Source: a virus
Length of the DNA stretch: 64,000 nt
Strand: one strand, 5' to 3'
IMG/VR virus record: IMGVR_UViG_3300025010_000009
Location: 4,776-68,775 of that record
Position 1 is the first letter of the stretch, and every line of letters begins with the position of its first letter. Below are positions 31,112 through 47,642 of this stretch, in pieces. The position numbers and the translations under genes were made by a program. The notes beneath the pieces are model-generated. The model was not told where the DNA came from, did no database searches, and worked only from the letters and a program-made list of their open reading frames with translations.

Positions 31112-32086
31112 TTAAAAAGGTACATCATCTGTTTCAGGTGCTTCAACACTCGCAAGGGCATCATAACAGGCCATAGTAAGACCGGGTGCGCCCGTATCAT
31201 AAAATGGAGTTCTGAACGCATCCATAATAATGAAAGCACGTGCATCATCCTCCTGAAGTAATACCTTATTACAGTATCCTAGGACAGCCCGGCGTACCTT
31301 TTCAGGGTCCTCATCCTTTAAGTTCAATAGGATCTTCCGCACCTGGGGCCATGCAAATTTCTGCAGCATAGATCGGCATAAGTCAATAACAGTAGTCTCA
31401 ATGATCTGCACACATTTTACAGCATCAAGCTGCTTATCTTTAGGTAGGTCAATAACTTGATCAAGGGCTACAAGAGCATTTCTAGGGTGTCCCTCAGCTA
31501 AGTGTATTACAGCGTCAAGTACCTCCCTGTTAATAGCTTTTCCCTCAGCCCGGCAAATACCTTTTAGAAGTCTGAGCATATCCATGTCATCAAGGAGTTC
31601 AACCTCAAATACACTACACCGACTACGGATACCCTCCAGAAGTCCTTGGGGTTCAGACGTACAGAGGAAAAAATAAGTATGGTCCGGGGGTTCCTCAAGT
31701 AGCTTGAGTAGGGCACTCTGTGCCTGATTCTTGGCACTTGCCCCACCTTGGCCAAGCATATGTACCTCGTCAAAAAGCCAACATCGGACGTTCTTTCCGC
31801 CCAGGGCTTTCATATTGGCATTTTTTCTGACCTCCCGAACGTCATCAATAGAACGGAAAACAGCACTATCAAGTTCAACAAAATCCCGTTCTAGATCACA
31901 TCCAAACTCCTGGGCAACAATCCGCGCAAGAGTGGTTTTCCCGCACCCGATAGGTCCGGTGAAAAGATAAGCGTGAGGGATCTTCTCCAGTGGTTTACCC
32001 AGTACGGTCCCCAGCTTTTCTATCATATCATCATTGCCTACAAAATCATCTAATATTTTGGGCCTGTACTCAATATGTAATGGCAT
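31112..32086 (-). CDS. dnaX: Clamp loader (DNA pol III gamma/tau-like AAA+)
   Basis: YRPK, HAYLFTGPIGCGKTT, FDEVHML, LLKLLEEPP, IRSRC. Confidence 0.9.
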   Translation of the reverse strand: MPLHIEYRPKILDDFVGNDDMIEKLGTVLGKPLEKIPHAYLFTGPIGCGKTTLARIVAQEFGCDLERDFVELDSAVFRSIDDVREVRKNANMKALGGKNVRCWLFDEVHMLGQGGASAKNQAQSALLKLLEEPPDHTYFFLCTSEPQGLLEGIRSRCSVFEVELLDDMDMLRLLKGICRAEGKAINREVLDAVIHLAEGHPRNALVALDQVIDLPKDKQLDAVKCVQIIETTVIDLCRSMLQKFAWPQVRKILLNLKDEDPEKVRRAVLGYCNKVLLQEDDARAFIIMDAFRTPFYDTGAPGLTMACYDALASVEAPETDDVPF

Positions 32087-32103
32087 TATTTATCCTCTTC
32101 AGT

Positions 32104-33114
32104 TTACTTTCGTTTAATAGGTGTATATAACCTCTTTGATATAAAATCCTGCCGAGCCATTTCCATGACCTCTCGCATCTGGGGGTGGGCTCCAGGATTT
32201 TCCTCACTACGCAGGTGGAACATATAATGCCATTGGGTAATATCTGCCTGGACAAGGAGTTCTGCTGCCAGAGCATTTTGCAGTAATCCCCTTGCCTGCT
32301 CAGGACGTTGCTTGCTCGCTTCTCCAACTACATTTTCATTCATGAGCAAGCAATATTCATTGTAGGATTGAATTATAGACTTTACCCAAATCCTAACAGC
32401 AGGATTTTCAATTACATTTGCACAATGTATATCGTATACGCCAGGGCTTATCTGTGTATAAAACCATGGGGGGAGGATAAACCTGGCTGGTCTTTTCAGG
32501 TAATTTACATAACGGGTACTTTCCTGGAGAAAGCTGCAGGGGCGGTGTCGTACCATCTCATGTGTAATACCCCTGTCAATAGTGAATTTAATACAGATAG
32601 GGAGAAAATTGAGGGGCAACTTATTTTCTCTGGTAATTATTGCCCAGCCCCCGGTAGGACGTAAAGGCTGGTAGGAGAAAAATTCAGGATATTTTTCCAG
32701 TAATAAGCAATATATATCAATTAATGGCTGAAATGATATCCACCAAGGAGTAATTTCAAATGTATCTATCCAGGCCCTGAGACTACCACCAAAGAATAAT
32801 ACCCCATTCTTTTCATTGAATTCAATCTTGTGGAACTGAATCCGGTGATGATGAGCAAGTATAGCCAACAGTTTGGAATAGATAGAAATATCAGTATAAG
32901 TTCTGAATACAATCCATCCAAATTCTAAAACACTCATATGTTTCTTCTTTGCCTTATCAATTACAAAGGGCGTAGCGGATTCAGCAGTAATCTTATCCTC
33001 ACTTTTATAACACAGACGCCCAGCGCGTTCAATCCTTTGCATCATCTCTTCACGTTTAAGAGGAGGAGGACCCCAGACATCAATACTGGGTTTAATCAAT
33101 TCTATTTCAATCAT
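32104..33114 (-). CDS. thyX: FAD-dependent thymidylate synthase
   Basis: HEMVRHR..SFLQESTRY, ARGLL, LR...AHPQMR. Confidence 0.9.
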   Translation of the reverse strand: MIEIELIKPSIDVWGPPPLKREEMMQRIERAGRLCYKSEDKITAESATPFVIDKAKKKHMSVLEFGWIVFRTYTDISIYSKLLAILAHHHRIQFHKIEFNEKNGVLFFGGSLRAWIDTFEITPWWISFQPLIDIYCLLLEKYPEFFSYQPLRPTGGWAIITRENKLPLNFLPICIKFTIDRGITHEMVRHRPCSFLQESTRYVNYLKRPARFILPPWFYTQISPGVYDIHCANVIENPAVRIWVKSIIQSYNEYCLLMNENVVGEASKQRPEQARGLLQNALAAELLVQADITQWHYMFHLRSEENPGAHPQMREVMEMARQDFISKRLYTPIKRK

Positions 33115-33437
33115 TTCAACACCTCCAAAGTTTTAAATTGGATATTCAGAGGCCATATGTCCTGTCCTTCCCGAATAGCCTCACCTAACCTGCATTGTTT
33201 ACATGCATCCTCATTAACATGTAATAGCGGGTAATCAATAGATCTGCTTGCTTGCCTAATACGTATCGCAATATAGGTACACCGCAGTTGACAAAAGGAA
33301 CGGAAATATAAATGGGCAATATCAAGAGTTTCAGCATAGAAAATAGTTTCTCGCTTCTCAGCAATAAAACACTGTCGAGTAAATCGCCTTTGTGTAGTCT
33401 TTCCCCGTTTACTCTTCTTCGTCTTAGGCTTAGGCAT
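33111..33437 (-). CDS. Hypothetical basic Cys-containing protein
   Basis: ORF coupled to thyX. Confidence 0.5.
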   Translation of the reverse strand: MPKPKTKKSKRGKTTQRRFTRQCFIAEKRETIFYAETLDIAHLYFRSFCQLRCTYIAIRIRQASRSIDYPLLHVNEDACKQCRLGEAIREGQDIWPLNIQFKTLEVLK

Positions 33438-33440
33438 GGG

Positions 33441-33947
33441 CTATTCCCTATCAATATCTTCATTAACAAAAAGAATTGATCTACATTGTGTTTGGTGTGC
33501 ATATACTTTTATACTCACTCCATTTTTACAAGCAATTCCAAGTCTACGTAAACAACTTATAAGTATAGTTATTTCTGCGTTAATTTTTCTTTCCTGTGGC
33601 TGTGCCCGTTTAGTATGGATAAAACCATTCCCACGCCATTCCAAGAGTCCCCATTTAGGGGGTAGTTCATCAACTTGGATCAATCCCTTTGGACAAGCAT
33701 AATACCGCCATTTACCCATACCAGTATCTGGCTTACGCCTGAATATCTTTTTTGCATCATTCAGAAAATCACTCCGATCTGCTTTGACTTCAATTAGAAT
33801 TGTATTACCGCCTGTATTAAATCCTAGAACATCAGGGTGTTCTCTATTTTGAGTAGCAAGCTCAGTAACAACAACAGGACAATTATGAGTTAACCACTTA
33901 GCAGCTTTTTCAACTAGGAAACCGTGTGTTATTTTCTTTCCAGTCAT
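33441..33947 (-). CDS. PD-(D/E)xK nuclease-like protein (MmcB-like)
   Basis: EHPDVLGF, LIEVKADRSDFL, ELPPKWGLL. Confidence 0.7.
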   Translation of the reverse strand: MTGKKITHGFLVEKAAKWLTHNCPVVVTELATQNREHPDVLGFNTGGNTILIEVKADRSDFLNDAKKIFRRKPDTGMGKWRYYACPKGLIQVDELPPKWGLLEWRGNGFIHTKRAQPQERKINAEITILISCLRRLGIACKNGVSIKVYAHQTQCRSILFVNEDIDRE

Positions 33948-33978
33948 GACCTCACGTCCTATATTAACTTATTAACTA

Positions 33979-35433
33979 TTAACTATTAACCTGAGCACAT
34001 ACTGGGCAGGTCAAATCTTTATAAAGCCATTTATTTCCGCACTGTGTACAACCCTGTGGGTATTCTTTTACTTTTTTCAGGTGGTACCAGCTAGCCCCTG
34101 CCGGCCCCAATTCCAAGTCAATTTTAAGGGGAACAATTATCCAAGGCCAATGCTGGCGAACATCTACGCACATAACCCGATTTACAACACCTACAATATG
34201 GTTAATCTCACTTGGCTCAAAGTCAAATACGAGAGCATCATGAATTTGCCCTAAAATCTTGGATTCCCACTTTTCCTCAACGGCAATCTTCTGTAACTGA
34301 ATAATTGACCAGAGGAGGAAATGAAAGCTGCTACCCTGAATTGGATAGTTACAAACTTCATTCCTGGTCATTACCCCCTGATACCGAAAGCCTGTGAGGC
34401 TATCCACATAACCCTGTCTGTGATAGAGTTTTACCCAGTCATCTTTCCACTTTGCATATACCGGGAAACGCTGTCCCCAGAAACGTTCTTCAACTTTCTC
34501 AATATGTTTTTCAAATTGAGCTAAGTTACGAATACCCTTTTTGCGCAGGTGATCATAAAGGGGAGTACCTTTCTTTGTAATGAGTTTAAGCTGCTGAATT
34601 GCATTCCAGAGGTTCTTTGCACACATTACATAATAATCACCATAAAACTCAGCAAAAGTGAAGTTGTTCTTACCCGCATATCGAATATCCCCAGTCCACT
34701 CATCAAGGTCAAGTAAGTAACACTCACAGGCTATATCCCGGTGCATATCAAGCTCAGGATTCATAATCTCAGCAATCATATTCGGGTCCTGGTGATAGCA
34801 GCAGCTGCCGATAACCTCAGCCTTACTGTAGTCAACCTCCCCTAATAGCCGGTGCCTTGTACGTGGAATAAATTTTGTACGTACAAGTCTTTTAAGCTCT
34901 TCCTCATGTTTCGGGACGTTCTGAAAATTGATATTACTTGAGCTTGATCTGTAGCTTATAAGCAGGAGGTTAAAGAAGGGGTGGAGCATTCCACCCACTT
35001 GTTCACGGAGAATACCCTCAAGATTTGTGGACCTTACCTTTTCAAGTTTTCTGCGCTCAATAAGGTCTAAAAGCCAGGGTTGTTCCAGGGCCTTTAGACT
35101 TTCTTCATCTGTGCTGCCAGTGGTTTTATTCTCACTACTCTTTTCAGTTTCTTTAAATGGCTTGAGTTTAAGCCTGGTATAGAGTAATTCCCGAAGTTGA
35201 TCATCACTATCCAGATTGAACTTCAGCCCGTACATCTCTTTCCAGATTTTGACCTCTTTAGACGCATAAAGTCGGGCCTCAATAGCAGGTATACGCTTTT
35301 CCCCAAGTCTACGCATATCCAACTCAATAGCAGGGACATCTACACGCAGGCCATTAAGTTGTATTTGACTCAGGGCTAGGGCTCCCTCATGTAAAAGTTG
35401 GTACCCAGAATGTGTTATAGGTAAACAGGTCAT
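33979..35433 (-). CDS. polA: Family A DNA polymerase, polymerase domain
   Basis: NFQNVP, motif A VDYSKAEV, motif B R...K...F...YG, NYPIQG, motif C QIHD. Confidence 0.9.
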   Translation of the reverse strand: MTCLPITHSGYQLLHEGALALSQIQLNGLRVDVPAIELDMRRLGEKRIPAIEARLYASKEVKIWKEMYGLKFNLDSDDQLRELLYTRLKLKPFKETEKSSENKTTGSTDEESLKALEQPWLLDLIERRKLEKVRSTNLEGILREQVGGMLHPFFNLLLISYRSSSSNINFQNVPKHEEELKRLVRTKFIPRTRHRLLGEVDYSKAEVIGSCCYHQDPNMIAEIMNPELDMHRDIACECYLLDLDEWTGDIRYAGKNNFTFAEFYGDYYVMCAKNLWNAIQQLKLITKKGTPLYDHLRKKGIRNLAQFEKHIEKVEERFWGQRFPVYAKWKDDWVKLYHRQGYVDSLTGFRYQGVMTRNEVCNYPIQGSSFHFLLWSIIQLQKIAVEEKWESKILGQIHDALVFDFEPSEINHIVGVVNRVMCVDVRQHWPWIIVPLKIDLELGPAGASWYHLKKVKEYPQGCTQCGNKWLYKDLTCPVCAQVNS

Positions 35434-36653
35434 TTCAGGCCCTCAAATTGTTTCCATTGCAAGCTAGCAATACGGTATTCAGTAAGGCTATCCAAGGCGC
35501 AACGTTTAAGTATATCCCTCATTGGCGCATCATATATTCGGTTAAGAGCATTTGCATTCTTTTCGTTTGATTTAAGGTATTCATCCGTTGCGCCCTTAAA
35601 GTTGAAGAAACCCAATGTTTTTGCTGCCTGGAATTCAAGATTTTTAGTACCCCGGCGATTGTCAAGAGTATGTTCTCCATACATAGTGTCCCAATACCAT
35701 CCATTTACGGGACAGTTAAGTACTGCCCTTGACCACATATCCTCAAATTTCATATTCTGTGCAATTTTTTTTATACTACTGTCAACAAGTATTTTTTTAA
35801 GCAGGCGTTCAATATTGATGTCATTAAATTGAAAGGCAAAAGCGTGGTCAAACCCGGTAGCAATACTACAGGCAACAATATGTTGCTCTCTAGCTATAGG
35901 CCGCAGCCCAGTTGTCTCATAATCAAATGCTATTGGGTTATGGAATTGACGAGCAACCCGGTCAAGACGGTTTAGAACATCATCCGTATTAGTAAGGATT
36001 TCAATACAATCCTCTTCAGGTTTCCAGGTCGGGAAGGGATCTTGATAGTGCTTTATAGCATACTCAAGGTCATTAAGAAATACGGTCTCAACAGCGGGGT
36101 TAACCTTCTCATTTCTGAGTACATAACTGGGATGAAATAAGGGAAATACCCAACAATGGTTTTCCCGATCAGGTATTTGCCAACCCCTCCAGAGGGTAAT
36201 ACCACCACCAATATTCGTCCGGTGTCCGAAGTAGCTCTCAATAGCAGCACCACCCAACAGGAATACTGCCTTGGGTTTAACCTCATGCAGAACACTGTAA
36301 CAACGGGAACGGCAGGCCTGAATTTCATGTGATTTGGGTGCCCGGTTATCCGGTGGCCGGCAATTAACGCTATTAATTTTAACAGTATCCCTATCAAGGT
36401 CAATACCATGTTCGCCAAGGCATCCCCGATAGTATGTGCCAATTTTTCCAACAAGTTGTTTCCCCCGTTTGTCCTCATCTTCCCCAGGTGCCTCAGCCCA
36501 ATTGAGAATACCTAACTGGCCCTGACCGTGCGGCGCCATCTTTGGACTTAGGCATTGCCGGTATAACCCACATGAGGCACAGCCTATTGGCTTGCCCCCG
36601 ACCACGCCCTTATGTAATCCAATTACATCATCTTTGGAAAAGAATCCGGACAT
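35430..36653 (-). CDS. Family-4 uracil-DNA glycosylase fused to 3'-5' exonuclease (N-terminal part of a split polymerase)
   Basis: CASCGL, AEAPG, CRPPDNR, HPSY; then AFDYETTGL, QNMKFE, WDTM, CALD. Confidence 0.85.
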   Translation of the reverse strand: MSGFFSKDDVIGLHKGVVGGKPIGCASCGLYRQCLSPKMAPHGQGQLGILNWAEAPGEDEDKRGKQLVGKIGTYYRGCLGEHGIDLDRDTVKINSVNCRPPDNRAPKSHEIQACRSRCYSVLHEVKPKAVFLLGGAAIESYFGHRTNIGGGITLWRGWQIPDRENHCWVFPLFHPSYVLRNEKVNPAVETVFLNDLEYAIKHYQDPFPTWKPEEDCIEILTNTDDVLNRLDRVARQFHNPIAFDYETTGLRPIAREQHIVACSIATGFDHAFAFQFNDINIERLLKKILVDSSIKKIAQNMKFEDMWSRAVLNCPVNGWYWDTMYGEHTLDNRRGTKNLEFQAAKTLGFFNFKGATDEYLKSNEKNANALNRIYDAPMRDILKRCALDSLTEYRIASLQWKQFEGLK

Positions 36654-36659
36654 GAACGG

Positions 36660-36845
36660 CTACCCCCTTTTAGTTGCCTTTTCCCAAATATTGTTAAGCG
36701 TTTCATCTTGTTTAGGAGTAAGGTCAGAGCCGGTAGCTAATCTATCTGATATTGATTCAATAAAATTGGTTTCCCATTCGGTTAACCGACTTTCCCTGGC
36801 CTCACAGTCATCAATCATTTCAAGCCATTCTTCTTTTCTAGACAT
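36660..36845 (-). CDS. Small conserved phage protein
   Basis: LTEWETNFIESI...LTPKQ pattern. Confidence 0.6.
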   Translation of the reverse strand: MSRKEEWLEMIDDCEARESRLTEWETNFIESISDRLATGSDLTPKQDETLNNIWEKATKRG

Positions 36846-36848
36846 GAA

Positions 36849-37862
36849 CTATGCCTCCATAGTCACCACATGTTGAAATTTATCATCTTTGAAGAGGATT
36901 GCCCCACTACCCACAATAGCAGTTCTGACCTTACTCAGAATTTGACTGAAGTTATCAGGGTGGATATTAAACTGAAATCCTTTAGTGGCATTAATTTCAA
37001 TATCCTCCCTGAACCATCCACTTTTACCCTCACTGCTTACCTCAAGTTTTTTACCCACGGCCTTAACTACAATTGTCTCATCCCCCTCATTATTTACAGC
37101 CAGCACTCGGGCACGGTCAATAACGTCAATCAGGCTTTCAGGAAACTCAATACTCACGCCATCCACGTCAAGGAAGGTCCCAACTTCAGGGAAAGTACCC
37201 TCATAAACACGGGAAGAGAATACTGTGCCCTCACGATTCTTAAAGTGCGCCCACCCTCCTATACAACAAACCTTCTCCGGGGCATAGGCCGGCAGGTATT
37301 TAGCGCTCCACGATGGAAGTAAATAAGGTGTTGCCGCACCTGTCTTTACAACCCAGCGGGTAATCCGGTATCTGTCAGTGCTCTCAATATAATCAGGACA
37401 GACATTCAGACAACAGAGTATGGGTGTTGTCATATTCCGACTGGCACTGAATGTACAGGATTTAATAGCCTGAATAAATCCCTGGGGGTCTGTGATCTTA
37501 CTCCATTTACCCGGCTTAGACATCTCATCAATAGGCAGACGTACTTCCTGTTCAAGTCGAATACCAGCCTCAGAGCGGATACCCTGAAGAATAAATTCAG
37601 TATCAGTCAGGGTAATATTCAGGACATCATCCTTACTACGCCTGAGCAGGTTGAACAACTCTTTGGCCTGTACTGCACCTGTGAGTTCAAATTTATCCTC
37701 TGTTGATATGGGGTGGCAGATAGCAACCTCATCATTAAAGGTCATAACCTCCCGGCCTTGAAAGACAAAGCAGGCACTCTGGTCCACAAGGCTTTTCTCA
37801 TTACCCAGGCCGGGTTGTACCTTCTGAAGAATATCTAATAATTCTGTGCGTTTAATCTTCAT
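36849..37862 (-). CDS. dnaN: DNA polymerase sliding clamp (beta-like)
   Basis: 337 aa; STDRYRI, SRVYEGTFP motifs. Confidence 0.8.
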   Translation of the reverse strand: MKIKRTELLDILQKVQPGLGNEKSLVDQSACFVFQGREVMTFNDEVAICHPISTEDKFELTGAVQAKELFNLLRRSKDDVLNITLTDTEFILQGIRSEAGIRLEQEVRLPIDEMSKPGKWSKITDPQGFIQAIKSCTFSASRNMTTPILCCLNVCPDYIESTDRYRITRWVVKTGAATPYLLPSWSAKYLPAYAPEKVCCIGGWAHFKNREGTVFSSRVYEGTFPEVGTFLDVDGVSIEFPESLIDVIDRARVLAVNNEGDETIVVKAVGKKLEVSSEGKSGWFREDIEINATKGFQFNIHPDNFSQILSKVRTAIVGSGAILFKDDKFQHVVTMEA

Positions 37863-37891
37863 TCCTATTTCCTTCCTATTTCAATGTAAAT

Positions 37892-37939
37892 AAAAAACCG
37901 GCTCCCCGGCTTGACGAAAGTTTTGAGGGAGCCGGTTTT
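37892..37939 (-). terminator. Intrinsic terminator
   Basis: 13-bp stem AAAACCGGCTCCC/GGGAGCCGGTTTT with U-tract on the minus strand. Confidence 0.7.
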
Positions 37940-38169
37940 GAGTCCTTACCTACTTACCAGGCCACGGTGACCTAGGCAAACTACAATCTCATTTGATGGT
38001 CCCATACACGGGCCTCTACCGTGCGGTTCCACATTTTCAATTTAATTTTCACTTTAATTCCCCTCTTGCTTCTAGGTAGGTGCCGGTAATATTATTTATT
38101 TTTCATATTGATAAAGTTAAGCACAAACATAAAACCACCTCCTTTTTTATTCTTGGCAAATTTTGGCAT

Positions 38170-38560
38170 TTATTGACGGGGACGTCCCCGGTCATTCACT
38201 GCCTTAAGCCGCATGCTTTCGCAGAGGCGGCTTGTTTGCAGGCGGCTGATAAAAATCAGAGTGGCTACGTAATAGCCCTGTTGCCTGCGTTATTTATCTA
38301 GGGGTTCTTGCCGATACATGGGCCATCACCATGCCGTTCATTTTTATTCTCCTTTAAATAAAGGGTAGGGGTTAATAAAATTAACCCCTTCACCCAGAAT
38401 CCCCGCTCACCGGCCAGCTATAACATCAGCAAGCCCGTGGCGGGGTATATACTGGGGCTCCGACATTTTCCAGTCGGGCAGCACTTGCGGCGGGGCAACC
38501 GCGACTGCGCAACCGGGTGGGGTTCAGGACCTCGGAGCAACAGACCTGCTGGGAAACTTT
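38170..38560 (-). ncRNA. Candidate structured RNA region(s), class unknown
   Basis: GC-rich intergenic segments with many stems flanked by AT-rich DNA; strand inferred from neighbouring genes. Confidence 0.45.
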
Positions 38561-38605
38561 TTCTAATTCTTTCTTAGTAGGTAACTATTTTTCTTTTAAA
38601 AATAT

Positions 38606-38682
38606 ACTTGTTTGGACCGTAGAGCAGTTTTTAATTATTTTCTATAGGGGTACTACCCCTAGGGGGTAAAAATCGCTTAGAA
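38606..38682 (+). repeat. Dispersed motif, copy C (intergenic)
   Basis: Same blocks and spacing as 12106-12181. Confidence 0.7.
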
Positions 38683-38687
38683 CTAAT

Positions 38688-39839
38688 TCATTTACTTTTT
38701 ACTAATTCCATATCATATTCATTATTTTCTTTAATCAGAATAACCCCAGGGCAAAGAATAGGTTTATTTCGTTTAAACTTTGAGTAATCTACCTGATGAT
38801 GCCATCTTCCAAATTTCCAAACTATTTCCACCTCATCAGGATGCTGCTCTTTTAAACTCTCAGCAAAGGAAAGACGATAATCATTTTGGTTATAAACATT
38901 ATCTGTATTTCCACCACGAAGTGCTGGGGTATTACTCTTTGAGCTACCATTATGTGTAGCTAGTTTATTCATCAAAAAGGCCCTGAATAAAAGGGTACAC
39001 CATCCATCTTTTAATACCCGCAGACTCAGGTCAGTGTCCTCATTATACCTTCCACGCCAACGATAAGGGAGTTCAGTATTTATAAGGGTACATGAATATA
39101 CACGGGAATTAAAAAGATATGGACTTATATCCCCCTGTCTATCTGCTACAAATCCCTGATCATGTGGTCCAGCAAGGGCAATATTTGTATACCGATCTAC
39201 AAAATCTTCCATAGCTCGGAAAAATCCGCCACCACGAACTTGAAGACGTCGATTACAATTACATCTTGTAAACATATTAATATTATCATCAACAACCCAA
39301 TGCCGGGGAAACCCCCGTTTTTCAGCCCAATCCCAGATAAAATTCCGGGCCGGGATGGACCCTTGACCAAGATCATGAAAGGGCATTACTACAACATTAT
39401 TCTTCCCGAGGTTCTTAATATAAATATCTTTTTCCGTACTCTCTACAAAGAATTTATAACTAACTCCCAACTGATCAAGAAGTTTTCCGGTTGTTTGAAT
39501 TTCAGCCCGCCCTTTACTCGGTATACAGATTGGATATTTAGAGTCTATAGCAGGCCCAATGTATTCAAACTCACTATTTTTTAACCTCTTTTGTTCTGGG
39601 TACCATGCTGAGTCAGTAGTAGTAGAGATATGAAGGCCAAGCCGGTCCGCGAACTCTTTTATATCTTCTTTAGTCATAAAATTCATAACTATTTTATACT
39701 GGGGTGTTGCATCCTCCATTTCAAATTCAGGCATTCCCCACCATATATCCCGCCAGTAGGGTTCAACGTCAAAAAAGCCTGAAGGGGTTTTCTGCTTTAC
39801 TGGACGACGGCTTTTCAATTCTTTCTTCAAATTAGACAT
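38688..39839 (-). CDS. TAGT/GREB1-like glycosyltransferase with fused N-terminal domain
   Basis: ICIPSKGRA, ARNFIWD, HWVVDDNI, RVYSCTLI, WRGRYNEDTDLSLRVL. Confidence 0.75.
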   Translation of the reverse strand: MSNLKKELKSRRPVKQKTPSGFFDVEPYWRDIWWGMPEFEMEDATPQYKIVMNFMTKEDIKEFADRLGLHISTTTDSAWYPEQKRLKNSEFEYIGPAIDSKYPICIPSKGRAEIQTTGKLLDQLGVSYKFFVESTEKDIYIKNLGKNNVVVMPFHDLGQGSIPARNFIWDWAEKRGFPRHWVVDDNINMFTRCNCNRRLQVRGGGFFRAMEDFVDRYTNIALAGPHDQGFVADRQGDISPYLFNSRVYSCTLINTELPYRWRGRYNEDTDLSLRVLKDGWCTLLFRAFLMNKLATHNGSSKSNTPALRGGNTDNVYNQNDYRLSFAESLKEQHPDEVEIVWKFGRWHHQVDYSKFKRNKPILCPGVILIKENNEYDMELVKSK

Positions 39840-39851
39840 GTAAATACCTAA

Positions 39852-40796
39852 TTAAATAATTGATTCAAAATATTCAATTGTTTTATTAAGCCCATAAATA
39901 ATATCAACTTTAGGCTCCCAGTCAAGAAGTTCTTTTGCCCTAGTTATATCCGGTTTCCTCTGCCTTGGGTCATCAACCGGGAGTTGTACATACTTAATCT
40001 TTGATTTTGTATCAATAAGGGAAAGGACTAAATACGCAAGTTCTCCGATATTATATTCTAAAGGATTTCCAAGATTAATAGGTCCAGTAATACCTTCATC
40101 TGAGTCCATTAACCTTATAAACCCATCAATCATATCATCTACATAACAAAAGGACCGGGTTTGACTTCCATCCCCATAAATTGTAATATCCTTTCCCTGT
40201 AGGGCCTGGACTATAAAATTTGAGACTACACGACCATCATCAGGATGCATTTTTGGACCGTAGGTATTGAAAATACGAGCTACCTTTATTTTTACCCCAT
40301 GCTGTCGGTGGTAATCAAACATTAAAGATTCAGCAGCACGTTTACCCTCATCATAACAGGATCTGGGCCCATTTGGGTTTACCCTTCCCCAATATGTTTC
40401 AGGTTGGGGGTGTACCTCAGGGTCACCGTATACTTCACTTGTTGAGGCCTGAAATATTTTTGCTCCAGTTCTCTTAGCAAGACCGAGCATATTAATAATT
40501 CCTAAAATTGATGTCTTTATTGTCTGAACAGGATCATGTTGGTAATGAATTGGGGATGCAGGGCAAGCAAGATTATAAATTTCATCTACTTCAATATAGA
40601 GAGGAAAGCAGAGATCATGACGAATAAATTCAAATTTATTATTTTGGAAAAGATGTTGTATATTTTCCTTAGTACCAGTAAAGCAGTTATCAACACAAAT
40701 AACCTCATTACCTTGAGAAAGTAATACCCCACATAAATGAGAGCCAAGAAAACCTGCTCCACCAGTTACTAAGATTCGTTTCATGTTTTTTACCAA
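39852..40796 (-). CDS. uxs: UDP-glucuronate decarboxylase (UDP-xylose synthase)
   Basis: [49 protein letters not shown]. Confidence 0.92.
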
Positions 40797-40811
40797 GTAG
40801 ATAGTGAGAAA

Positions 40812-40839
40812 TATAGGGGGGAGCCGGCTCCCCCCTATA
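40812..40839 (-). terminator. Perfect 28-bp palindrome, probable terminator
   Basis: TATAGGGGGGAGCC|GGCTCCCCCCTATA downstream of 40868..41812. Confidence 0.6.
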
Positions 40840-40867
40840 GTTAGAGTTACAGGAGAAGGGCAGTTAC

Positions 40868-41812
40868 TTATTTCTGTCCCTTTTTCTGCCGAGCAAGAAC
40901 TGCGTAAATAGAGTTGCCGATAACCCGATACGGTTTTTCCGGGAATTTTTCCTTGGCCATGAGCACAATATCATCCTCGTGCCGGTCACCGAGACCATCC
41001 TTCAGTACATCTTCCAGGAAAATTGCCATTCCTTCCTTGCCCTTTTTACCGGGACCAGCAGCCTTGACCTTGCCCTTCTTCTTGGTCGGGGCTTTGCCGG
41101 CGCCAAGGTCATTCAGTTTTCCGGTGACATAATCACGCAGCTTGGCCAGATCCTTCAGGAAAGGCGGGGCGATGCGGATGCCGTTGTCTTTGGCGATGGC
41201 CTTCAGATTATTGATAGTCTTGGCCTTCTTAACAGCTGCAAGAGGGGCAGAGACGTCAACGGGTTCACCCGCAGGCTCTTCCTCAGCTTCAGCCTCAGCT
41301 TCACTGGCGCGGGGACCAACTTCCCACTCGGCAAACAGTGCCCAGGTGCTGTCATCCAGCTCATCCTCAGCAACCAGCTGTTCTGAAGTTTCCTTCAGTT
41401 CTGTCATCAGGGAATCATCATCCATTTCCAGGTTGATCGGGGGCTTGAAGTACCCCCGGCCATTGATGTCCTCAGCGGCAGCAATCATGCGGTCATGCAT
41501 AACATCAACATTAACGTCGGCGTCAGCAGGTTCAGTTTTAGATTCAACTTCTTTCGGTGTAGCAGTACGTTTTGTTGCCATTTCAGTGTTCTCCTTGTCT
41601 GTGGTTGTAGTTGTGATCTTGCCCTCAGTAATGGCAGTAAGGCTTGATCGTTTTACGGTCTTTTTGATTTGGTCTATCTCTATCACGGCACTCTCTGAGC
41701 CGGACAGACTTACGAATACTGCGAGGATTTCCTTTTTGGGACCCCGCCGAACATGCTGCTGGTATATAACGCGGTTTCCGGCTTCAATTGTTGAGAAATC
41801 GATTGATTGCAT
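40868..41812 (-). CDS. Hypothetical early protein (acidic centre, basic C-terminus)
   Basis: Has its own promoter and terminator; possible internal start MATKR. Confidence 0.65.
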
Positions 41813-41859
41813 TTTAATTCTCCCCCGAGAAGGTTTTATTTTCTGATTTTTGTCCCCTG

Positions 41860-41898
41860 TTAGAAATACTATAAACCTCCTGGTTAAGAAAGTAAAGA
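41860..41898 (-). promoter_or_regulatory. Early promoter TTTACT-N17-TATAGT, copy 1
   Basis: 39 bp identical to 53147-53185. Confidence 0.8.
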
Positions 41899-41942
41899 GA
41901 AAAATAACTTTAAAGTAAAAAAATATTGCGCGGGGGTAACTC

Positions 41943-43475
41943 CTAGAAATAACTACCTAAATATGGCCTGCCTATCTCCAGACATTGGAGTACAGTTGCT
42001 TGTACTCTAGTATCAAACAGGCCTTCCCGGCCAAGAAGAGGTGCTATACGTACAATTTTTTTCCGCTTCTCCTCAGGGGTCTGATTTATACCATAGGCAG
42101 CGGTCACGTGATCCCATTTCCGAACGTTCTCACTAAAGTTGCCTGTGCCCAATGACTTGGCCTCCATACCCCCGGCATCACTCTGGGTAGCCCCAACCAC
42201 ACAGCAATCAAAGTCAATACTCATCTGCCTGACCTGACGCCACGTTTCATTAATCCGGTGCCTGACATCAAGATTGGTAGAGAGTTCAAGCAAATCAAGA
42301 TAATCAATTACTATAACATGTGGGCGCCAGCCCCGTCCATTCCAAATATCCAGGATTGATCTTAGCTCAGTAGTATTCATTCTGGACCGGCATACTACCC
42401 GAAAATCATTATTTCCAGCCTGCTGCCGCATCCACTTTTCCCCGGCCAGGATACCCTCACGCCAGGTAAGTGGAGACACAGCTGGGCGTTGTTTATACCA
42501 GACAGCGCCTTTAAAATCTCTTGGGCTATTCTTTTTACATACAGTACAAACACAATACCCACCAGAGTTCGCTACTTCCCAATCAATAGCTTCTCCCTTT
42601 TCCTTATCAGTAATAACTCCAAACTCACAAACCCTTTCTGGACTATCACACTCATCACTCTGATTATGTGCGCAATCAAGTATAGGCACAAGCATGGGCC
42701 CACAATACTGGGGATCATAACTGCGGCCACTAAGTCGTACATGCAGGCGTCTGATCTGTTGTTCTTCTGAGAGGTCACCTATCTGGAACAGGGCAACCCG
42801 ATTCCTTGCCCTGTGTGCCCGAAAAGCAAGTTCGTCAAGCCACCAGGTTTTACCTCGTTTTGGCGGGGCCAGCAAGGTCACAAATGTTGCGGGGCTGAAT
42901 TGATTATTGAAAACTTGACCCAGGGCTCCAGGATAGGTAAAGAATGGGCTAGAGAAGGATTCAAAAGCACTTTGTATTTTTTCAATACTGGTAAAGGGGT
43001 TAAACCCCAGATCCTCAACCAGTTCCTGCCGCTTATACCCCTCTAGTATTGCCTGTGCTTCTTCAAATTCTCCCTCCTGTACAGCCCGGCCTGCTTCCCT
43101 GACGGTTAGACGTGTCCGGCGCTCATCAAGGTAGCGTTTACTCTGCTTGAGATAATAATCAGCATCAAATTCATTTGCTCGTTCATACTCCTTGCTCAGT
43201 ATATCAAGAAGTTCTGCAAGGTCATCTGCATGATCGTCATCAATACTATCATCCCGGATATGCTGTTCATAAACATCTTGGAGGAGTTTACCGGGGGCTT
43301 TCCCGTGTACTTGGTAATGATCCAGGCACCACCGGCAGATGACCTTGCTTATATCAGCCTGGAGGAGTTCGGGTTCAAATACGTCCTTAATTGCATTGAG
43401 GAATGGCGTACTGACAGCCATTCCTATAATGAGCTGGCGTTCCTGCCCGGTATCAATTTTACGCTTAGTTATCAT
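41943..43475 (-). CDS. dnaB: DnaB-like replicative helicase with Cys-rich insert
   Basis: APPKRGKT, IVIDYLDL, ATQS. Confidence 0.85.
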   Translation of the reverse strand: MITKRKIDTGQERQLIIGMAVSTPFLNAIKDVFEPELLQADISKVICRWCLDHYQVHGKAPGKLLQDVYEQHIRDDSIDDDHADDLAELLDILSKEYERANEFDADYYLKQSKRYLDERRTRLTVREAGRAVQEGEFEEAQAILEGYKRQELVEDLGFNPFTSIEKIQSAFESFSSPFFTYPGALGQVFNNQFSPATFVTLLAPPKRGKTWWLDELAFRAHRARNRVALFQIGDLSEEQQIRRLHVRLSGRSYDPQYCGPMLVPILDCAHNQSDECDSPERVCEFGVITDKEKGEAIDWEVANSGGYCVCTVCKKNSPRDFKGAVWYKQRPAVSPLTWREGILAGEKWMRQQAGNNDFRVVCRSRMNTTELRSILDIWNGRGWRPHVIVIDYLDLLELSTNLDVRHRINETWRQVRQMSIDFDCCVVGATQSDAGGMEAKSLGTGNFSENVRKWDHVTAAYGINQTPEEKRKKIVRIAPLLGREGLFDTRVQATVLQCLEIGRPYLGSYF

Positions 43476-43735
43476 TGTTTGATTCTAATATAGGGTAAAA
43501 GTGCAATTTGTTCTGAATTTAATATTGCAGCATGATCAATAATTAATCCGTTAAATTCACGTCCTTCAATATTCCTAATAGATAACCATGATAATGGTTT
43601 TATATCAAGATCATTTCGTCCAATTTTACTTGCTAATAATTTTGGATAACCTAAGTTACTATTTACCCATATAAAAATGGAACTATAAGGAGCAGAGGTC
43701 ATTTGTATAGTTGTATTCCCCTTCCTTCTTTCCAT
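43472..43735 (-). CDS. Hypothetical AT-rich protein
   Basis: Coupled ORF. Confidence 0.5.
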   Translation of the reverse strand: MERRKGNTTIQMTSAPYSSIFIWVNSNLGYPKLLASKIGRNDLDIKPLSWLSIRNIEGREFNGLIIDHAAILNSEQIALLPYIRIKQ

Positions 43736-44277
43736 TATTTCCTCCCCCTTTTATCAACTCCAGTCATAGTCTTTACCCGGCACATTTCCATAATCCGGCT
43801 GGTAAGACGGTCATCATATATTTCAGACAATTCAGAAAGACTGAGATTACTACTTACTACCAGATTTTTACCCATTTGATACAGGGTATCAATTATGAGG
43901 TAGAGGCTTGCCCGCACCCAATCACTCGGCTTATCAGCGCCCAGGTCATCAAGGTAGAGCCAATCCACCTTGGTATAGTGGTCAATAATCTGCTTTTCAG
44001 TTTCGAGCGCACCGGGGGTAAAACTTGACCGTAATCTGAATAATAGTCCGGGAGCCCCCGTCCAGGTAATAACAGGCCATTCCTGCTTTTCCTGAACTAC
44101 TCTCTGCCATTGAGCATAGAGCATGGCCGCCATGTAATACGTTTTCCCCACGCCTACAGGGCCGGTAATAAATAAGGGCCTGACCTCAATATCTTGGATG
44201 GTCTTTCCCCACCATTTCTCTGGTATACCTGATTTTTCAATCTGCTTATTAATTATTTGCTGATGAATAGGGTTCAT
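43735..44277 (-). CDS. DnaC/IstB-like helicase loader
   Basis: GPVGVGKT, LYLDDLGA, SSNL, RLTSRI. Confidence 0.9.
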   Translation of the reverse strand: MNPIHQQIINKQIEKSGIPEKWWGKTIQDIEVRPLFITGPVGVGKTYYMAAMLYAQWQRVVQEKQEWPVITWTGAPGLLFRLRSSFTPGALETEKQIIDHYTKVDWLYLDDLGADKPSDWVRASLYLIIDTLYQMGKNLVVSSNLSLSELSEIYDDRLTSRIMEMCRVKTMTGVDKRGRK

Positions 44278-44279
44278 AA

Positions 44280-44522
44280 CTAGGCTTTAACTCCCTGATA
44301 GGCTATACCAGCTAGGTAAGGGTATGCCGGGGCTGGGCAATTATTTGGATGCTTAGTACAATTCAAACATCGATTAAGCGGGGCGTACTCCCCGTTACAC
44401 CATACATTTGTTTTCCAGAGGTCAACGCCTTTATATTTTCGGCGTTGCCGCTGACGTCTGTCTATTCCTGAACGTCTATTGTCAATCATCATCCACTCCC
44501 AATTGTGCCTGAAGATTTTCAA
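44280..44522 (-). CDS. Hypothetical small protein
   Basis: ORF; RRSGIDRR motif. Confidence 0.45.
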   Translation of the reverse strand: MKIFRHNWEWMMIDNRRSGIDRRQRQRRKYKGVDLWKTNVWCNGEYAPLNRCLNCTKHPNNCPAPAYPYLAGIAYQGVKA

Positions 44523-44982
44523 GATTATGACATATTGCTTTTAACTCATGTTGAATAAAATCCTTTTTGCTTTCCTCAGTTTTTGGCCCAACCCTTTCCA
44601 AATATTCATATAGGGGTTCAAAGGTTCCCCCAATTTCAATTTTAGGCTCTTCTACTGGTTTTCTCTTACCCTTCATTATTCTTAAGTAAGATGATAATGA
44701 AACACGGGTTGGCCCAACATGTACAATTGGTTCAAGTTCTTCCCTTACATACCCAACTGAAAGAAAATTCTTATCCTGGCCACTAGCCCGCATATAGTGG
44801 CAGATTACCTTATTGACCTTAGCCGGAAGCGGGTCCGTAATTTTAATTAGGTCTTTCAGGATAAATCCATTAGGACCGAAGTTATTGTTCAGATTTGCGT
44901 TAGTTTGATCATATTCCCAAACAGCTTTGTGTAATAATGCCTCAAGTCTGCCGTTCATCCCCTTTCCTCCATTAACAGTCAT
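44482..44982 (-). CDS. Hypothetical protein
   Basis: ORF between initiator and loader. Confidence 0.55.
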   Translation of the reverse strand: MTVNGGKGMNGRLEALLHKAVWEYDQTNANLNNNFGPNGFILKDLIKITDPLPAKVNKVICHYMRASGQDKNFLSVGYVREELEPIVHVGPTRVSLSSYLRIMKGKRKPVEEPKIEIGGTFEPLYEYLERVGPKTEESKKDFIQHELKAICHNLENLQAQLGVDDD

Positions 44983-45904
44983 TATTTATAACTTCTGCAC
45001 CTTCCATATACCGATCATATTTACTCTTGTCCTGGCAGCGGATTCCCCCTGAGGGTGTAAACCTATTGGACTGACTAGGGGATTTGTCTTTTTTATTATC
45101 ATAATTCCCTTCCATCACCTTTACCCAATTTGTACTATTTGTGATAATCCAGTCAAATGTTATAGTCCAATTTCGGTCATTATCACCACAGAGGAAATTG
45201 CTACGCAATATTTTATTTACTAGCCGACGCCAATCTCTCTCAGTAGCCAGACCCTCTTTGCGCCGGGCGGTAAGTTTATCAGCGCGCGCTGCTGTTATTT
45301 GATTAATTTTTCTGACTGGAGTGGACTCAAAAGCCTCATTCCATATTTGAAGGATTGTTTGATTATTAAATTTAGAAGGAAGGTCTTTTACTCTTTGTTT
45401 AGGAAAGGTTGTGCTTTGTTCTTGATTATTTTCCAATGAAGGAGGATTATAGGAGAAAGAATCTTCTTCTTTCTTTCCTTCTTTAGAATTCTTATTAGTA
45501 CTTACTTTAGTATTCTTAAAGGGTCCGGAAAAACCGCTAGCCGGTTTTTCCGCTAGCGGTAATTCTGGCTCACGGTTTTTCTCATCATCCCAAATATATA
45601 ACTCTAATCGTGTATTTCCAAATTGACCGTTAACTCTTTCCTGAACCCTGCCTATTAATCCCATTTCTTCAAGCTGTAGGAGTACTGGGCCAACTGTTTC
45701 CCTATGCATGCCGGCATAGGTACAGACTGTTTGAAGGAAGTTCTTGATATTGGGATTTTCATTGAAATCAGAATCAATTTCACACAGGGCAAGATATACA
45801 GATCTTAAATTCTTATATTCTTTGGTAGGGAAGTTATGACGAAAATATCGAATGATTCGTTTATCCCACCAGGCATGTGCACAATCTCTTTTTCTCTTAT
45901 CCAT
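44972..45904 (-). CDS. Replication initiator (N-terminal wHTH, lambda O-like organisation)
   Basis: wHTH-like N-terminus, low-complexity linker, C-terminal W.ITFDWI...KVMEGNY; upstream of a DnaC-like loader. Confidence 0.75.
   Translation of the reverse strand: MDKRKRDCAHAWWDKRIIRYFRHNFPTKEYKNLRSVYLALCEIDSDFNENPNIKNFLQTVCTYAGMHRETVGPVLLQLEEMGLIGRVQERVNGQFGNTRLELYIWDDEKNREPELPLAEKPASGFSGPFKNTKVSTNKNSKEGKKEEDSFSYNPPSLENNQEQSTTFPKQRVKDLPSKFNNQTILQIWNEAFESTPVRKINQITAARADKLTARRKEGLATERDWRRLVNKILRSNFLCGDNDRNWTITFDWIITNSTNWVKVMEGNYDNKKDKSPSQSNRFTPSGGIRCQDKSKYDRYMEGAEVINNDC
45490..45560. other. Candidate replication origin inside the initiator gene
   Basis: Inverted repeat GGAAAAACCG/CGGTTTTTCC, direct repeat CCGCTAGC x2, adjacent AT-rich tract. 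Confidence 0.45.
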
Positions 45905-45906
45905 AG

Positions 45907-46419
45907 TTAGGGCTCCTGTACAACTAAATCCATTGTATGTTCTATTTTTATTTTTGATAAAACTTTTATAATATATAATAAATCACTTTTTTTATAATAA
46001 ACTCTTCCATTTAATTCAATTTTAGAAATCCACGGATTTGTTCTTAATACCCTATTAAAAGAATCAAATATTTTTATTTCTTTAATTATTTCTTTTGCTT
46101 GTTCACGAGGTAACCAAATACTATTTTTTGGTAGAATAAAGTTATATTTTGGTAGGAATGAAGCTATTAATTCAGCTTCAATTTTATTTAAAGAAGATAA
46201 GGGGCAGGGTAATATTTTGAAATGAGTAAATTCTTTTTTACTTTTTAGGTAATGTTCAATTATTCTAGGCAAACCATTTTTGGTTTGCCCAATATATACA
46301 ATTGTATTTTTTTGAAATAATAAATATATAAGGGGGGATGACCATAAATCAAGCCATTCTTTAGAAAAATCAGGAGATGATTCAATTTCCCTGATTGTTT
46401 GGTCTTCATCATATTCCAT
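45907..46419 (-). CDS. GIY-YIG nuclease-family protein with C-terminal HTH-like region
   Basis: LIYLL...VYIGQT...RI..H, E...I...PKYN. Confidence 0.75.
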   Translation of the reverse strand: MEYDEDQTIREIESSPDFSKEWLDLWSSPLIYLLFQKNTIVYIGQTKNGLPRIIEHYLKSKKEFTHFKILPCPLSSLNKIEAELIASFLPKYNFILPKNSIWLPREQAKEIIKEIKIFDSFNRVLRTNPWISKIELNGRVYYKKSDLLYIIKVLSKIKIEHTMDLVVQEP

Positions 46420-46535
46420 TTACTTTCCCCTAAGTAGGTAAAAAGTTGGCCTTAATTCATGGCCCAGAAATAAAAAATAATCAGGGGGAGGGTAAAACTA
46501 AACACCCCTGTGTCGGGCTATGTGAAAAGGGATTC

Positions 46536-46582
46536 GGAGGAAGTGTTTATAACTAGACACAGTAATTATAAACACTTCCTCC
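46536..46582. promoter_or_regulatory. 17-bp perfect inverted repeat in a long leader
   Basis: GGAGGAAGTGTTTATAA-N13-TTATAAACACTTCCTCC. Confidence 0.6.
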
Positions 46583-46666
46583 TTTACCAGAAACTCTGGG
46601 CTGACCTGGCCGGGCCAACATCCAACAGGTTAGGAAGAGAAAGGGAATTCTCCAGATACACTTTCT

Positions 46667-46695
46667 ATTTTAGGCTAAAAAAATAAAAAAGTAAA
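46667..46695 (-). promoter_or_regulatory. sigma70-like promoter TTTACT-N17-TAAAAT
   Basis: Same -35 as the other early promoters. Confidence 0.6.
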
Positions 46696-46730
46696 GAAAT
46701 TTCTTTCCCTTTAATATTAAATACTTAACT

Positions 46731-47642
46731 CTAACCTTCCTGTAGTAATTCCTTCATTAAATCCCGTGCATAATCCCTGGGAAGTTCAGCGGGGTCCACC
46801 CCTCTTTTCTTAATGTTAATTTGTATCACTTCCTTCCTGTACATAGCCAGATAGGCTGCAATACGCTCACTCTGTACCTCAGCTTGGGGATCTGGGTCAA
46901 AAAATGTAAATACTTTATCAAATCTGCGTAACTTCTTGGCCTGCTCTATCCGGTATTTGATACCGAAAGTACAGACAGCCCCCGGCCCTAATCTCCAGGC
47001 ATCAGTTATACCCTCTACAATAACAGCAGTATTTCCCTCAATGAAGTCAAGGCCATATAGACAGTGCTTATGATCAATAACTTCATCCTCTTTTCTGCAC
47101 GCTTTATACCTGAGTTCAGCCCGGCCAGTCCAATCCCGGCCCTGATAGCTTACTAGCTGGCTGTATTGGTATATTGGGGCTATAATTCTGAATGCGTAAG
47201 GACCGTGCCGGCCAGTACCCTGGATACCCCATTGCTGAATAATTTCATCAGGGTCAAATCCCCTCTTGAGTAGGTAATTTCGGTGCCCAGTTTGTAGCGG
47301 ACCGCAGCCGTAGGGTAAGACCAGGGTTTTTTTCCGTAGCGAGAACCCACTTGTCTGGCTCGCTACGAGGTTTTTAGCCACACCCCTATACCTACCTATG
47401 GTTTTCCCCGCCTCGGCCCAGGAGCAGCTTAACAACGCTTTTACTACTTCTTTAACACTATGTCCCCCGCAGCGCCAGCATGAGTAGAAACCATCACGTA
47501 GGTGATACCCCAGATGCCATCCGAAGTTGCCTGTGCAGAATGGGCATTGGGTATGTACCCACCCGACGCTACAGTGCTTATGCCCGGAGCTTAGATTGGG
47601 AATTCCATTATCACGATAGAATTTAAGGGCATCGAAAATCAT
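46731..47642 (-). CDS. DNA primase (zinc finger + TOPRIM)
   Basis: CPFC...CWRCG, YQGR, VEGITD, FDPD. Confidence 0.88.
   Translation of the reverse strand: MIFDALKFYRDNGIPNLSSGHKHCSVGWVHTQCPFCTGNFGWHLGYHLRDGFYSCWRCGGHSVKEVVKALLSCSWAEAGKTIGRYRGVAKNLVASQTSGFSLRKKTLVLPYGCGPLQTGHRNYLLKRGFDPDEIIQQWGIQGTGRHGPYAFRIIAPIYQYSQLVSYQGRDWTGRAELRYKACRKEDEVIDHKHCLYGLDFIEGNTAVIVEGITDAWRLGPGAVCTFGIKYRIEQAKKLRRFDKVFTFFDPDPQAEVQSERIAAYLAMYRKEVIQINIKKRGVDPAELPRDYARDLMKELLQEG
47340..47400 (+). repeat. Dispersed motif, copy D (inside primase)
   Basis: Shares 27 bp with 23062-23088 and 15 bp with 12097-12111. Confidence 0.85.

Follow-up and report, generated by a model that had tools for sequence, protein, structure and literature searches.

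A recurrent UDP-xylose synthase and TAGT glycosyltransferase gene pair in the replication arm of a myovirus, and its candidate acceptors

The two genes and their products

The DNA analysed here (the window) is a stretch of 64,000 nucleotides, bases 4776-68775 of the 68,775-base-pair virus record IMGVR_UViG_3300025010_000009. The record has direct terminal repeats and is rated 100% complete; as a whole it is referred to as G000. The virus is a myovirus; for its capsid, cement, sheath and baseplate proteins, the matching Pfam families are those that take their names from Pseudomonas phage E217 and its relatives. The present account concerns two open reading frames (ORFs) on the minus strand, one encoding a predicted UDP-xylose synthase (UXS) and the other a predicted GT-A glycosyltransferase of the TAGT family (PF20691). 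They lie within a minus-strand replication and recombination arm spanning about 21.2-52.9 kb of the window, with 12 bases from the UXS stop to the TAGT start, and are flanked by a DnaB-type helicase and an acidic protein on one side and by the sliding clamp on the other (Table 1). A preliminary description of this DNA had recognized the two enzymes, their co-oriented adjacency and their place in the helicase-clamp interval, far from a late-strand gene cluster, and all of this is borne out; the distance to that cluster is about 33 kb. Its further proposal, that the phage xylosylates its bases as armour against restriction, fares less well, as discussed below.

The UXS ORF has 314 codons when counted from a TTG; judging by start-codon context, translation more likely begins at an ATG (40784). 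The product aligns with human UXS1 (PDB 4gll/2b69) over residues 1-311 (E 4.7e-125, 420 bits), whereas its sister short-chain dehydrogenases/reductases (SDRs) score far lower, with 141.6 bits for UDP-glucose 4-epimerase, the next PDB family, and about 80 bits for ArnA. A GxxGxxG NAD-binding motif is found near the N-terminus (residues 11-20), aligned to that of UXS1, and the stretches STSE, CYDEGKR and DGRVVSNF match the aligned stretches of UXS1. Catalytic roles in UXS1 are assigned to the S/T...E and YxxxK stretches. No NCBIfam equivalog cut-off is reached, and there is no plain UXS model among the matches from that library. The ORF is predicted to encode a true UDP-xylose synthase (UDP-glucuronate decarboxylase). 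It resembles the human and bacterial UXS1 enzymes (PDB 2b69/4gll) in its full-length alignment and in keeping the catalytic stretches, but it is phage-encoded, is without the membrane anchor of the eukaryotic enzymes and is not accompanied by a UDP-glucose dehydrogenase (Ugd) in the genome, where UXS itself, through its Rossmann motif, gives the sole match to the Ugd family. Since the phage has no Ugd, UDP-glucuronate would have to be supplied by the host.

The downstream ORF matches the Pfam TAGT profile with an E-value of 1.6e-39 and 136.4 bits (cut-off 27.5), residues 102-295 covering profile positions 1-200 of 205. It scores 138.2 bits in a six-frame search and also matches PHROG 842. Compared by sequence with the PDB, it yields nothing at E ≤ 1, and no NCBIfam family is matched. 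An AlphaFold2 (AF2) model, built on an alignment of 73 sequences, has a pLDDT of 92.7 and a pTM of 0.92. When used as a Foldseek query, this model retrieves generic GT-A folds only, with query TM-scores (TMq) of at most 0.38 (GalNAc-T4, LH3/ColGalT1, TarP, SpsA, GnT-I), and for this reason gives no clue to the acceptor. Residues R111, D184-D185-N186, E211, D268, K292, G309-G310 and H333 are invariant among the 73 sequences, and E267-D268 is invariant or nearly so. These residues fit the R...DDD...EDY/F motifs of phage GT-A DNA glycosyltransferases (Pyle et al., bioRxiv 10.1101/2023.12.21.572611), with the third D replaced by N. The clade is large, with at least 7,914 proteins at E ≤ 1e-10 and 2,005 clusters at 50% identity.

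Recurrence of the pair in other viral genomes

The TAGT and UXS loci compared below are pattern-seeded samples that include several near-identical contigs and are thus not independent. UXS adjoins TAGT in 5 of the 16 TAGT-seeded viral loci (L003-L007), where the pair lies between the same acidic protein and clamp. The gene order in these five is TAGT-UXS, as opposed to UXS-TAGT in the window. In two of them an extra ORF splits the pair (L004, 8582-9130; L006, 9230-9793); judged by eye, the inserted ORFs look like homing endonucleases of the AP2/HNH and GIY-YIG types, respectively. In 15 of 55 further viral loci seeded with UXS, a less closely related TAGT (38-47% identical) lies no more than about 2.4 kb away, on one side of UXS or the other; the remaining 40 have no TAGT nearby. 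When 88 TAGT sequences were placed on a FastTree tree, the backbone of which is weakly supported, the UXS-linked members fell in at least seven places.

The same association emerges from a census of neighbours, in which all ORFs within 5 kb of TAGT were clustered across 96 loci. An SDR family that includes UXS is the commonest non-TAGT cluster (23 loci) and is always co-oriented with TAGT. The second neighbour cluster, present in 14 of the 96 loci and always alongside the SDR, resembles UDP-glucose 6-dehydrogenase (PDB E 1.9e-22). Co-oriented TAGT-SDR-Ugd-like cassettes were observed in L123, L126-L130, L149, L150, L157, L168-L171 and L174. In two of them, L123 and L157, a true UXS fills the place of the SDR, giving full Ugd-UXS-TAGT cassettes; in the others it is a different SDR, 23-28% identical to UXS. 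The recurrence of these cassettes suggests that members of the TAGT clade are supplied by the UDP-glucuronate branch of sugar-nucleotide metabolism.

Two complete genomes, G002 and G003, share the pair with G000 in spite of structural modules that are unrelated and polymerases that are different. TAGT and UXS are 66-70% identical between these genomes and G000, as against 27-57% for the shared replication proteins. G002 replicates with an intein-containing Pol III alpha (L021:10759-14247); a dUTPase and an ORF with weak likeness to radical SAM proteins lie between its polymerase and the clamp-UXS-TAGT block.

The pairing of UXS and TAGT is not due to chance: the two genes form a genuine module, as yet uncharacterised, that recurs across viral loci. 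The supposition of the preliminary description that UXS supplies the transferase gains support from the co-occurrence of the two genes across phages, from the recurrence of the pair in both gene orders and from the full cassettes found elsewhere. The recurrent coupling of TAGT with UXS, SDRs and Ugd, together with the precedent of Pyle et al., makes UDP-xylose the probable donor of this TAGT.

It could be objected that UXS and TAGT are unrelated neighbours and that UXS feeds some other glycan, either one connected with the late-strand cluster or a host envelope polymer. The cluster in question, at 4120-6511 directly after the head genes, encodes an S-adenosylmethionine (SAM) methyltransferase, a protein in which a sulfotransferase is joined to a HAD-like part, and another with weak likeness to Stealth proteins, and is possibly concerned with virion or glycan modification. 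Viral UXS must moreover have other uses, given the many UXS loci that show no nearby TAGT. Yet the cluster is kept, at 50-53% identity, in the closest relative (G001), which has no UXS, while G002 and G003 have UXS and TAGT and no match to the cluster. The pair also persists despite the swap in gene order and the inserted ORFs, and the SDR is the neighbour most often found beside TAGT and never in the opposite orientation. We consider independent roles for the two genes very unlikely.

The acceptor

In the reading that we favour, the phage UXS would decarboxylate host-made UDP-glucuronate to UDP-xylose, and the adjacent TAGT enzyme would move the xylose onto an acceptor, most likely phage DNA at the replisome, at a site outside the known hydroxymethyl- and hydroxypyrimidine handles. 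We put the probability of this reading, in which TAGT transfers UXS-derived xylose at the replisome with DNA as the likeliest acceptor, at roughly 0.4, so that the proposal is a tentative one. DNA as the acceptor, like UDP-xylose as the donor actually used and any protective role, is inferred. DNA is favoured because TAGT genes occur in a replisome and terminase context and because TAGT is found fused to family-A DNA polymerases.

The fusions were found among nine long TAGT homologues (861-1267 amino acids) in the best 150 representative clusters. In six of the nine (P0143, P0156, P0158, P0169, P0237 and P0186), TAGT lies N-terminal to a family-A DNA polymerase within one protein. One such arrangement was confirmed at L100:7947-11180 as a single ORF of 1077 residues in a 100%-complete viral genome (57.8 kb, 69% G+C), where its neighbours are another TAGT and an enzyme of the radical SAM/SPASM type. 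The remaining long forms consist of TAGTs in tandem, or of TAGT together with a SLOG (YAcAr) domain or DUF5872. Our literature search found no description of TAGT-polymerase fusions.

In 23 of the 96 loci the large terminase (TerL) is found no more than 5 kb from TAGT; for the clamp the figure is 11. TAGT is found between the portal and head-morphogenesis genes of Vibrio phage 1.076.O (MG592452.1, L096) and between the large terminase and portal in L008; these positions place it in the packaging module too. Across phages of 37-64% G+C, TAGT is 60-70% identical, the other shared proteins being 25-59% identical, as would fit a universal substrate. The characterised members of the family, namely the T2/T6 enzyme (PMC13216743) and JGT (bioRxiv 10.1101/2023.12.21.572611), are described as acting on DNA, and T4 alpha-glucosyltransferase is reported to act with the gp45 clamp (cited in PMC13216743). 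A complex prediction for the window's TAGT with its sliding clamp scored 0.28 (mark 0.32) and counts neither way on binding.

A number of observations weigh against this reading. First, an enzyme that would prepare the acceptor is missing. No Tet_JBP, Thymidylat_synt or C5 DNA methylase match was found in the whole of G000 at E ≤ 1. This agrees with the preliminary description, which saw neither a TET/JBP enzyme nor a hydroxymethylase in the window, and extends the absence to the full record; it must be noted that the Tet_JBP searches lacked a positive control, the control genomes giving no match. The same holds for five related records (G001-G005), five others (G006-G010) and 49 further TAGT contigs: with G000 this makes 60 TAGT-bearing viral records, of which 15 are at least 90% complete, and none of the 60 has a ThyA-family gene or a Tet_JBP match above cut-off. 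C5 DNA methylase is likewise unmatched in the 59 records other than G000. A Tet_JBP-like match in G006 (15.3 bits) was discarded as part of a generic 2-oxoglutarate (2OG) oxygenase trio (PF13640, 64.9 bits) with no homologue in G000-G005. Such PF13640 oxygenases occur in only 1 of 16 TAGT genomes, G006, which serves as the positive control, and the AlkB-like oxygenase PF13532 occurs in none of the 16. Radical SAM proteins, considered as a general partner, were set aside, being present in 2 of the 16.

Clustering of 1,034 ORFs left TAGT as the only BLASTP cluster represented in all 16 genomes; the next best clusters, of replication proteins, reach 7 of 16. At the sensitivity of BLASTP (1e-6), then, no hidden conserved partner gene was found in the 16 genomes. 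As no handle maker was found and TAGT is the sole shared gene, every infected cell must already contain the acceptor. Among cultured phages with TAGT homologues, six of eight carry a ThyA-family gene; in the other two, Vibrio phages 1.124.O and 1.076.O (about 48 kb), neither ThyA nor TET was found, the Tet_JBP search again being without a positive control.

Second, G000, like G001-G003, avoids palindromes. The mean z-score is -1.17 for 6-mer palindromes and 0.02 for other 6-mers. In G000, CCCGGG is observed twice (26.7 expected), ACCGGT once (15.9 expected), AAGCTT three times (12.4 expected) and TGCA 227 times (328 expected). Such avoidance would not be expected of DNA under a blanket protective modification. 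Given this avoidance and the lack of a handle maker in the 60 records, base xylosylation as anti-restriction armour, as first proposed, is no more than a conjecture. The avoidance fits a sparse, site-specific or terminal modification, or an acceptor other than DNA.

Third, the link between TAGT and UXS is not a constant one. In G001, the TAGT of which is 70% identical to that of G000 and the structural genes 33-77% identical, other small ORFs are found at the position of UXS, and no UXS was detected in the available sequence (87% complete). UXS was likewise not found in L008-L010, where TAGT occurs. UXS therefore appears dispensable for the TAGT clade in some phages. Nor does any residue cleanly separate the UXS-linked TAGTs from the others; position 183 is biased in this comparison, the loci having been gathered with the search pattern HWIMDDNI. 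One of the loci without UXS, L009, has three tandem TAGT paralogues of 373, 376 and 379 residues (9168-13165) just upstream of the clamp on a contig of 64% G+C, with an FkbM-type methyltransferase ahead of the trio and ThyX elsewhere on the contig.

Lastly, the kinship with the T6 enzyme is a distant one: BLASTP gives an E-value of 2.3, and hhalign a probability of 17.8% with an E-value of 0.0014 over the nucleotide-binding half. Going by these alignments, the window's TAGT is related to the T6 enzyme at the profile level only. The family also includes GREB1, which is reported to be a protein O-GlcNAc transferase.

This last example points to a protein acceptor, a possibility that the preliminary description had itself raised. 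TAGT might use UDP-xylose to O-glycosylate either a component of the phage replisome or a conserved host protein. In favour of this are the lack of any handle-making enzyme in the 15 near-complete TAGT genomes and the persisting restriction-site avoidance, and a conserved protein could meet the need, implied by TAGT being the sole shared gene, for an acceptor in every infected cell. The predicted fold resembles, if only generically, protein-glycosylating GT-A enzymes (GalNAc-T4, ColGalT1/LH3, POMGNT1). A candidate substrate is at hand in the acidic protein encoded upstream of the pair in G000-G003, which is rich in serine and threonine. Nevertheless, the fusion to polymerases and the frequent terminase and clamp neighbours fit a shared DNA substrate better, the high identity of TAGT across divergent phages argues for a universal substrate over a fast-evolving phage protein, and the T2/T6 enzyme and JGT act on DNA. 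On balance, we regard a protein acceptor as unlikely, though it deserves to be taken seriously.

A bolder version of DNA as the acceptor is that the TAGT clade linked to the replisome and terminase glycosylates DNA without any handle, on a canonical base or at the 3' or 5' termini, with xylose as the sugar in this phage. To our knowledge, the only hydroxyls of ordinary DNA are those at the 3' and 5' termini. A terminal or sparse modification would reconcile the missing handle enzymes, the status of TAGT as the sole shared gene, the links to polymerase and terminase, and the avoidance of palindromes. In this specific form, the proposal is rather doubtful.

The preliminary description had pointed to two nearby genes, a long ThyX and a UDG, as possible makers of the acceptor. 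According to the first suggestion, TAGT would glycosylate a hydroxymethylated or hydroxylated pyrimidine produced by ThyX. The ThyX gene lies in the same arm, 5.6 kb away, and its product has about 100 extra residues, located between the first conserved block and the RHR motif in comparison with Mycobacterium tuberculosis ThyX; the TAGT-bearing contig G005 also has a ThyX. However, the signature RHRxxSxxxxSxRY is intact, and ThyX is absent from four of the five related TAGT records (G001-G004), including the complete UXS- and TAGT-bearing genomes G002 and G003. Beyond the G000 lineage, ThyX belongs to no shared cluster. ThyX, with its unbroken signature and its absence from relatives that keep TAGT, was rejected as the acceptor maker, and we consider a handle of this origin highly improbable.

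The UDG candidate was also abandoned. The UDG-like domain turns out to be the N-terminal part of a split family-A polymerase, the two ORFs of which overlap by four bases. According to the paper on phage Carin-5, a PolA with an N-terminal UDG-like domain marks phages with hypermodified thymidine, all of which carry a thymidylate synthase homologue. G000 shares the UDG-like PolA with these phages but is without the thymidylate synthase homologue.

Relation to described DNA glycosylation systems

The nearest published parallel is the 'subclass II' clusters of Pyle et al., which comprise a GT-A enzyme (JGT/TarP-like), an adjacent 'epimerase', a C5-methyltransferase and a 5mYOX/TET enzyme. As described in the preprint, the GT-A enzyme modified 5-hydroxymethylcytosine (5hmC) only when its partner 'epimerase' was co-expressed, and the products were hexose (Hex), N-acetylhexosamine (HexNAc) and hexuronic acid (HexA) adducts. 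The module in G000 is similar in that a GT-A enzyme of the same Pfam family stands beside a donor-supplying SDR, with the R...DD(D/N)...ED motifs and with replication or packaging genes as neighbours. It differs in lacking a methyltransferase, a TET/5mYOX and a ThyA-type enzyme, and in that the partner is predicted to be a UDP-glucuronate decarboxylase, not an epimerase; the predicted sugar is therefore a pentose. Neither 'xylose' nor 'pentose' appears in the main text of the preprint, to which that search was confined.

The characterised founding member of PF20691 is the beta-glucosyl-HMC-alpha-glucosyltransferase of T2 and T6 (PMC13216743, PMC13390438). Like the window's enzyme, that of T6 scores above the Pfam TAGT cut-off (38 bits, as against 136 bits for the window) and has a GT-A N-terminal half with R and W-x-x-D-D. 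The T6 enzyme, of 281 residues, is encoded next to gene 42 (dCMP hydroxymethylase, a ThyA-like ORF) and is described as adding a second glucose to glucosyl-hydroxymethylcytosine. In contrast, the window's TAGT, at 383 residues, has extra N- and C-terminal regions, and G000 has no gene 42 homologue.

Solitary TAGT homologues have been reported in 288 of 753 phage genomes, with a function yet to be defined (PMC13216743). The TAGT of G000 is a case of this kind: the genome has no ThyA-family hydroxymethylase, so that the hydroxymethylcytosine used by alpha- and beta-glucosyltransferases could not be made; the search did not extend to those two transferases (PF11440, PF09198). What sets it apart is its coupling to a dedicated UXS. 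Our literature search, from which supplements were excluded, found no paper in which a phage DNA glycosyltransferase is linked to UXS.

There is precedent for a pentose in phage DNA. Arabinosyl-5-hydroxycytosine is described in the DNA of RB69, DLP3 and Thanatos (PMC13326640, PMC12838424). For TH1_063 of Thanatos, the paper on that phage reports a UDP-xylose pyrophosphorylase activity in vitro, not that of a UXS. An unidentified deoxypentose in Thanatos DNA, putatively xylose, was later read as arabinose. What G000 is predicted to have in common with these phages is a pentose provided for phage DNA by a phage-encoded UDP-pentose route. They are described as using unrelated GT-B arabinosyltransferases, a ThyA-family 5-hydroxy-dCMP (5hodCMP) synthase and an arabinose-5-phosphate route, none of which is found in G000. 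More generally, the sugars described on phage DNA, so far as the literature compared covers them, hang on a 5-hydroxymethyl- or 5-hydroxypyrimidine or, in SP-15-type thymidines, on a dihydroxypentyl linker, and the phages that bear them carry an enzyme of the ThyA or TET family.

Set against this background, the module predicts a new donor, xylose not having been identified as a DNA sugar in the literature compared, and a large TAGT clade is systematically devoid of both handle-making enzymes. Should the acceptor be DNA, the chemistry would be new and would bear on the evasion of restriction and CRISPR, on type IV restriction and on glycosylase defences; it would also matter for the sequencing of environmental phages. 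Should the acceptor be a protein, the module would represent a phage-encoded xylosylation of the replisome or of a host factor. The present analysis contributes the reversal of gene order and the ORFs found between the two genes, the cassettes that combine Ugd, UXS and TAGT, the census of neighbours, the position of TAGT as sole shared gene, the polymerase fusions and the palindrome test on G000.

Other features of the locus

The coordinates of the pair and its neighbours are listed in Table 1. Besides the genes listed there, the arm contains replication genes for a DnaC-like loader, a probable primase, an SNF2 helicase and others, a clamp loader, and recombination genes for SbcCD-like, RecA/UvsX-like, gp32-like and UvsY-like proteins. 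No near-identical phage records were found for positions 30000-50000 of the window.

Table 1. Features at and around the UXS-TAGT pair (positions in the window)
Feature	Position	Strand	Basis and remarks
Long ThyX	32104..33114	-	336 aa; Pfam Thy1, E 7.7e-25 over residues 167-321
Split family-A DNA polymerase	33979..36653	-	UDG-like + 3'-5' exonuclease (35430-36653), polymerase (33979-35433); Pfam UDG, DNA_pol_A_exo1, DNA_pol_A
Sliding clamp	36849..37862	-	PHROG 947 (DNA polymerase processivity factor), E 8.5e-27
ORF-free stretch, 825 bp	37863..38687	-	Between TAGT and clamp gene; no ORF >40 aa on the gene strand
GT-A glycosyltransferase, TAGT family (PF20691)	38688..39839	-	383 aa; long form with N-terminal WWGMPEF region
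UDP-xylose synthase (UDP-glucuronate decarboxylase, extended SDR), predicted	39852..40796	-	PDB human UXS1 4gll/2b69; Pfam Epimerase, GDP_Man_Dehyd
G+C-rich hairpin with T-rich tail, terminator-like	40817..40835	-	Between acidic-protein gene and UXS; consensus scan and sequence
Acidic low-complexity protein	40868..41812	-	Precedes the pair in G000-G003; synteny-based; sub-threshold Pfam match only
DnaB-type replicative helicase	41943..43475	-	PHROG 19, E 2.4e-23; weak Pfam DnaB_C

The order DnaB-acidic protein-[TAGT/UXS]-clamp is kept in L002-L007, and in eight loci the TAGT/UXS pair has the clamp as its neighbour on the downstream side. The acidic protein is 43-74% identical to its counterparts in G001-G003. 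The hairpin that precedes UXS has a perfect stem, and because of this terminator-like element the UXS-TAGT pair may form a transcription unit of its own.

The ORF-free stretch on the other side of the pair is G+C-rich in patches, closes with a terminator-like hairpin at 37912-37895, and as RNA folds much more stably than 20 shuffled versions (z-score -5.69). It has no Rfam match at E < 0.6, and nothing resembling it was found in the other 15 genomes compared, either as nucleotides or in translation. It is possibly a large non-coding RNA.

Finally, a second RNA candidate lies at 28520-28639 on the minus strand, between the gp32-like and UvsX-like genes. Rfam gives a tRNA match of 120 nucleotides here (38.5 bits, above gathering), and no tRNA is called by ARAGORN anywhere in the window; perhaps it is an interrupted or unusual tRNA.

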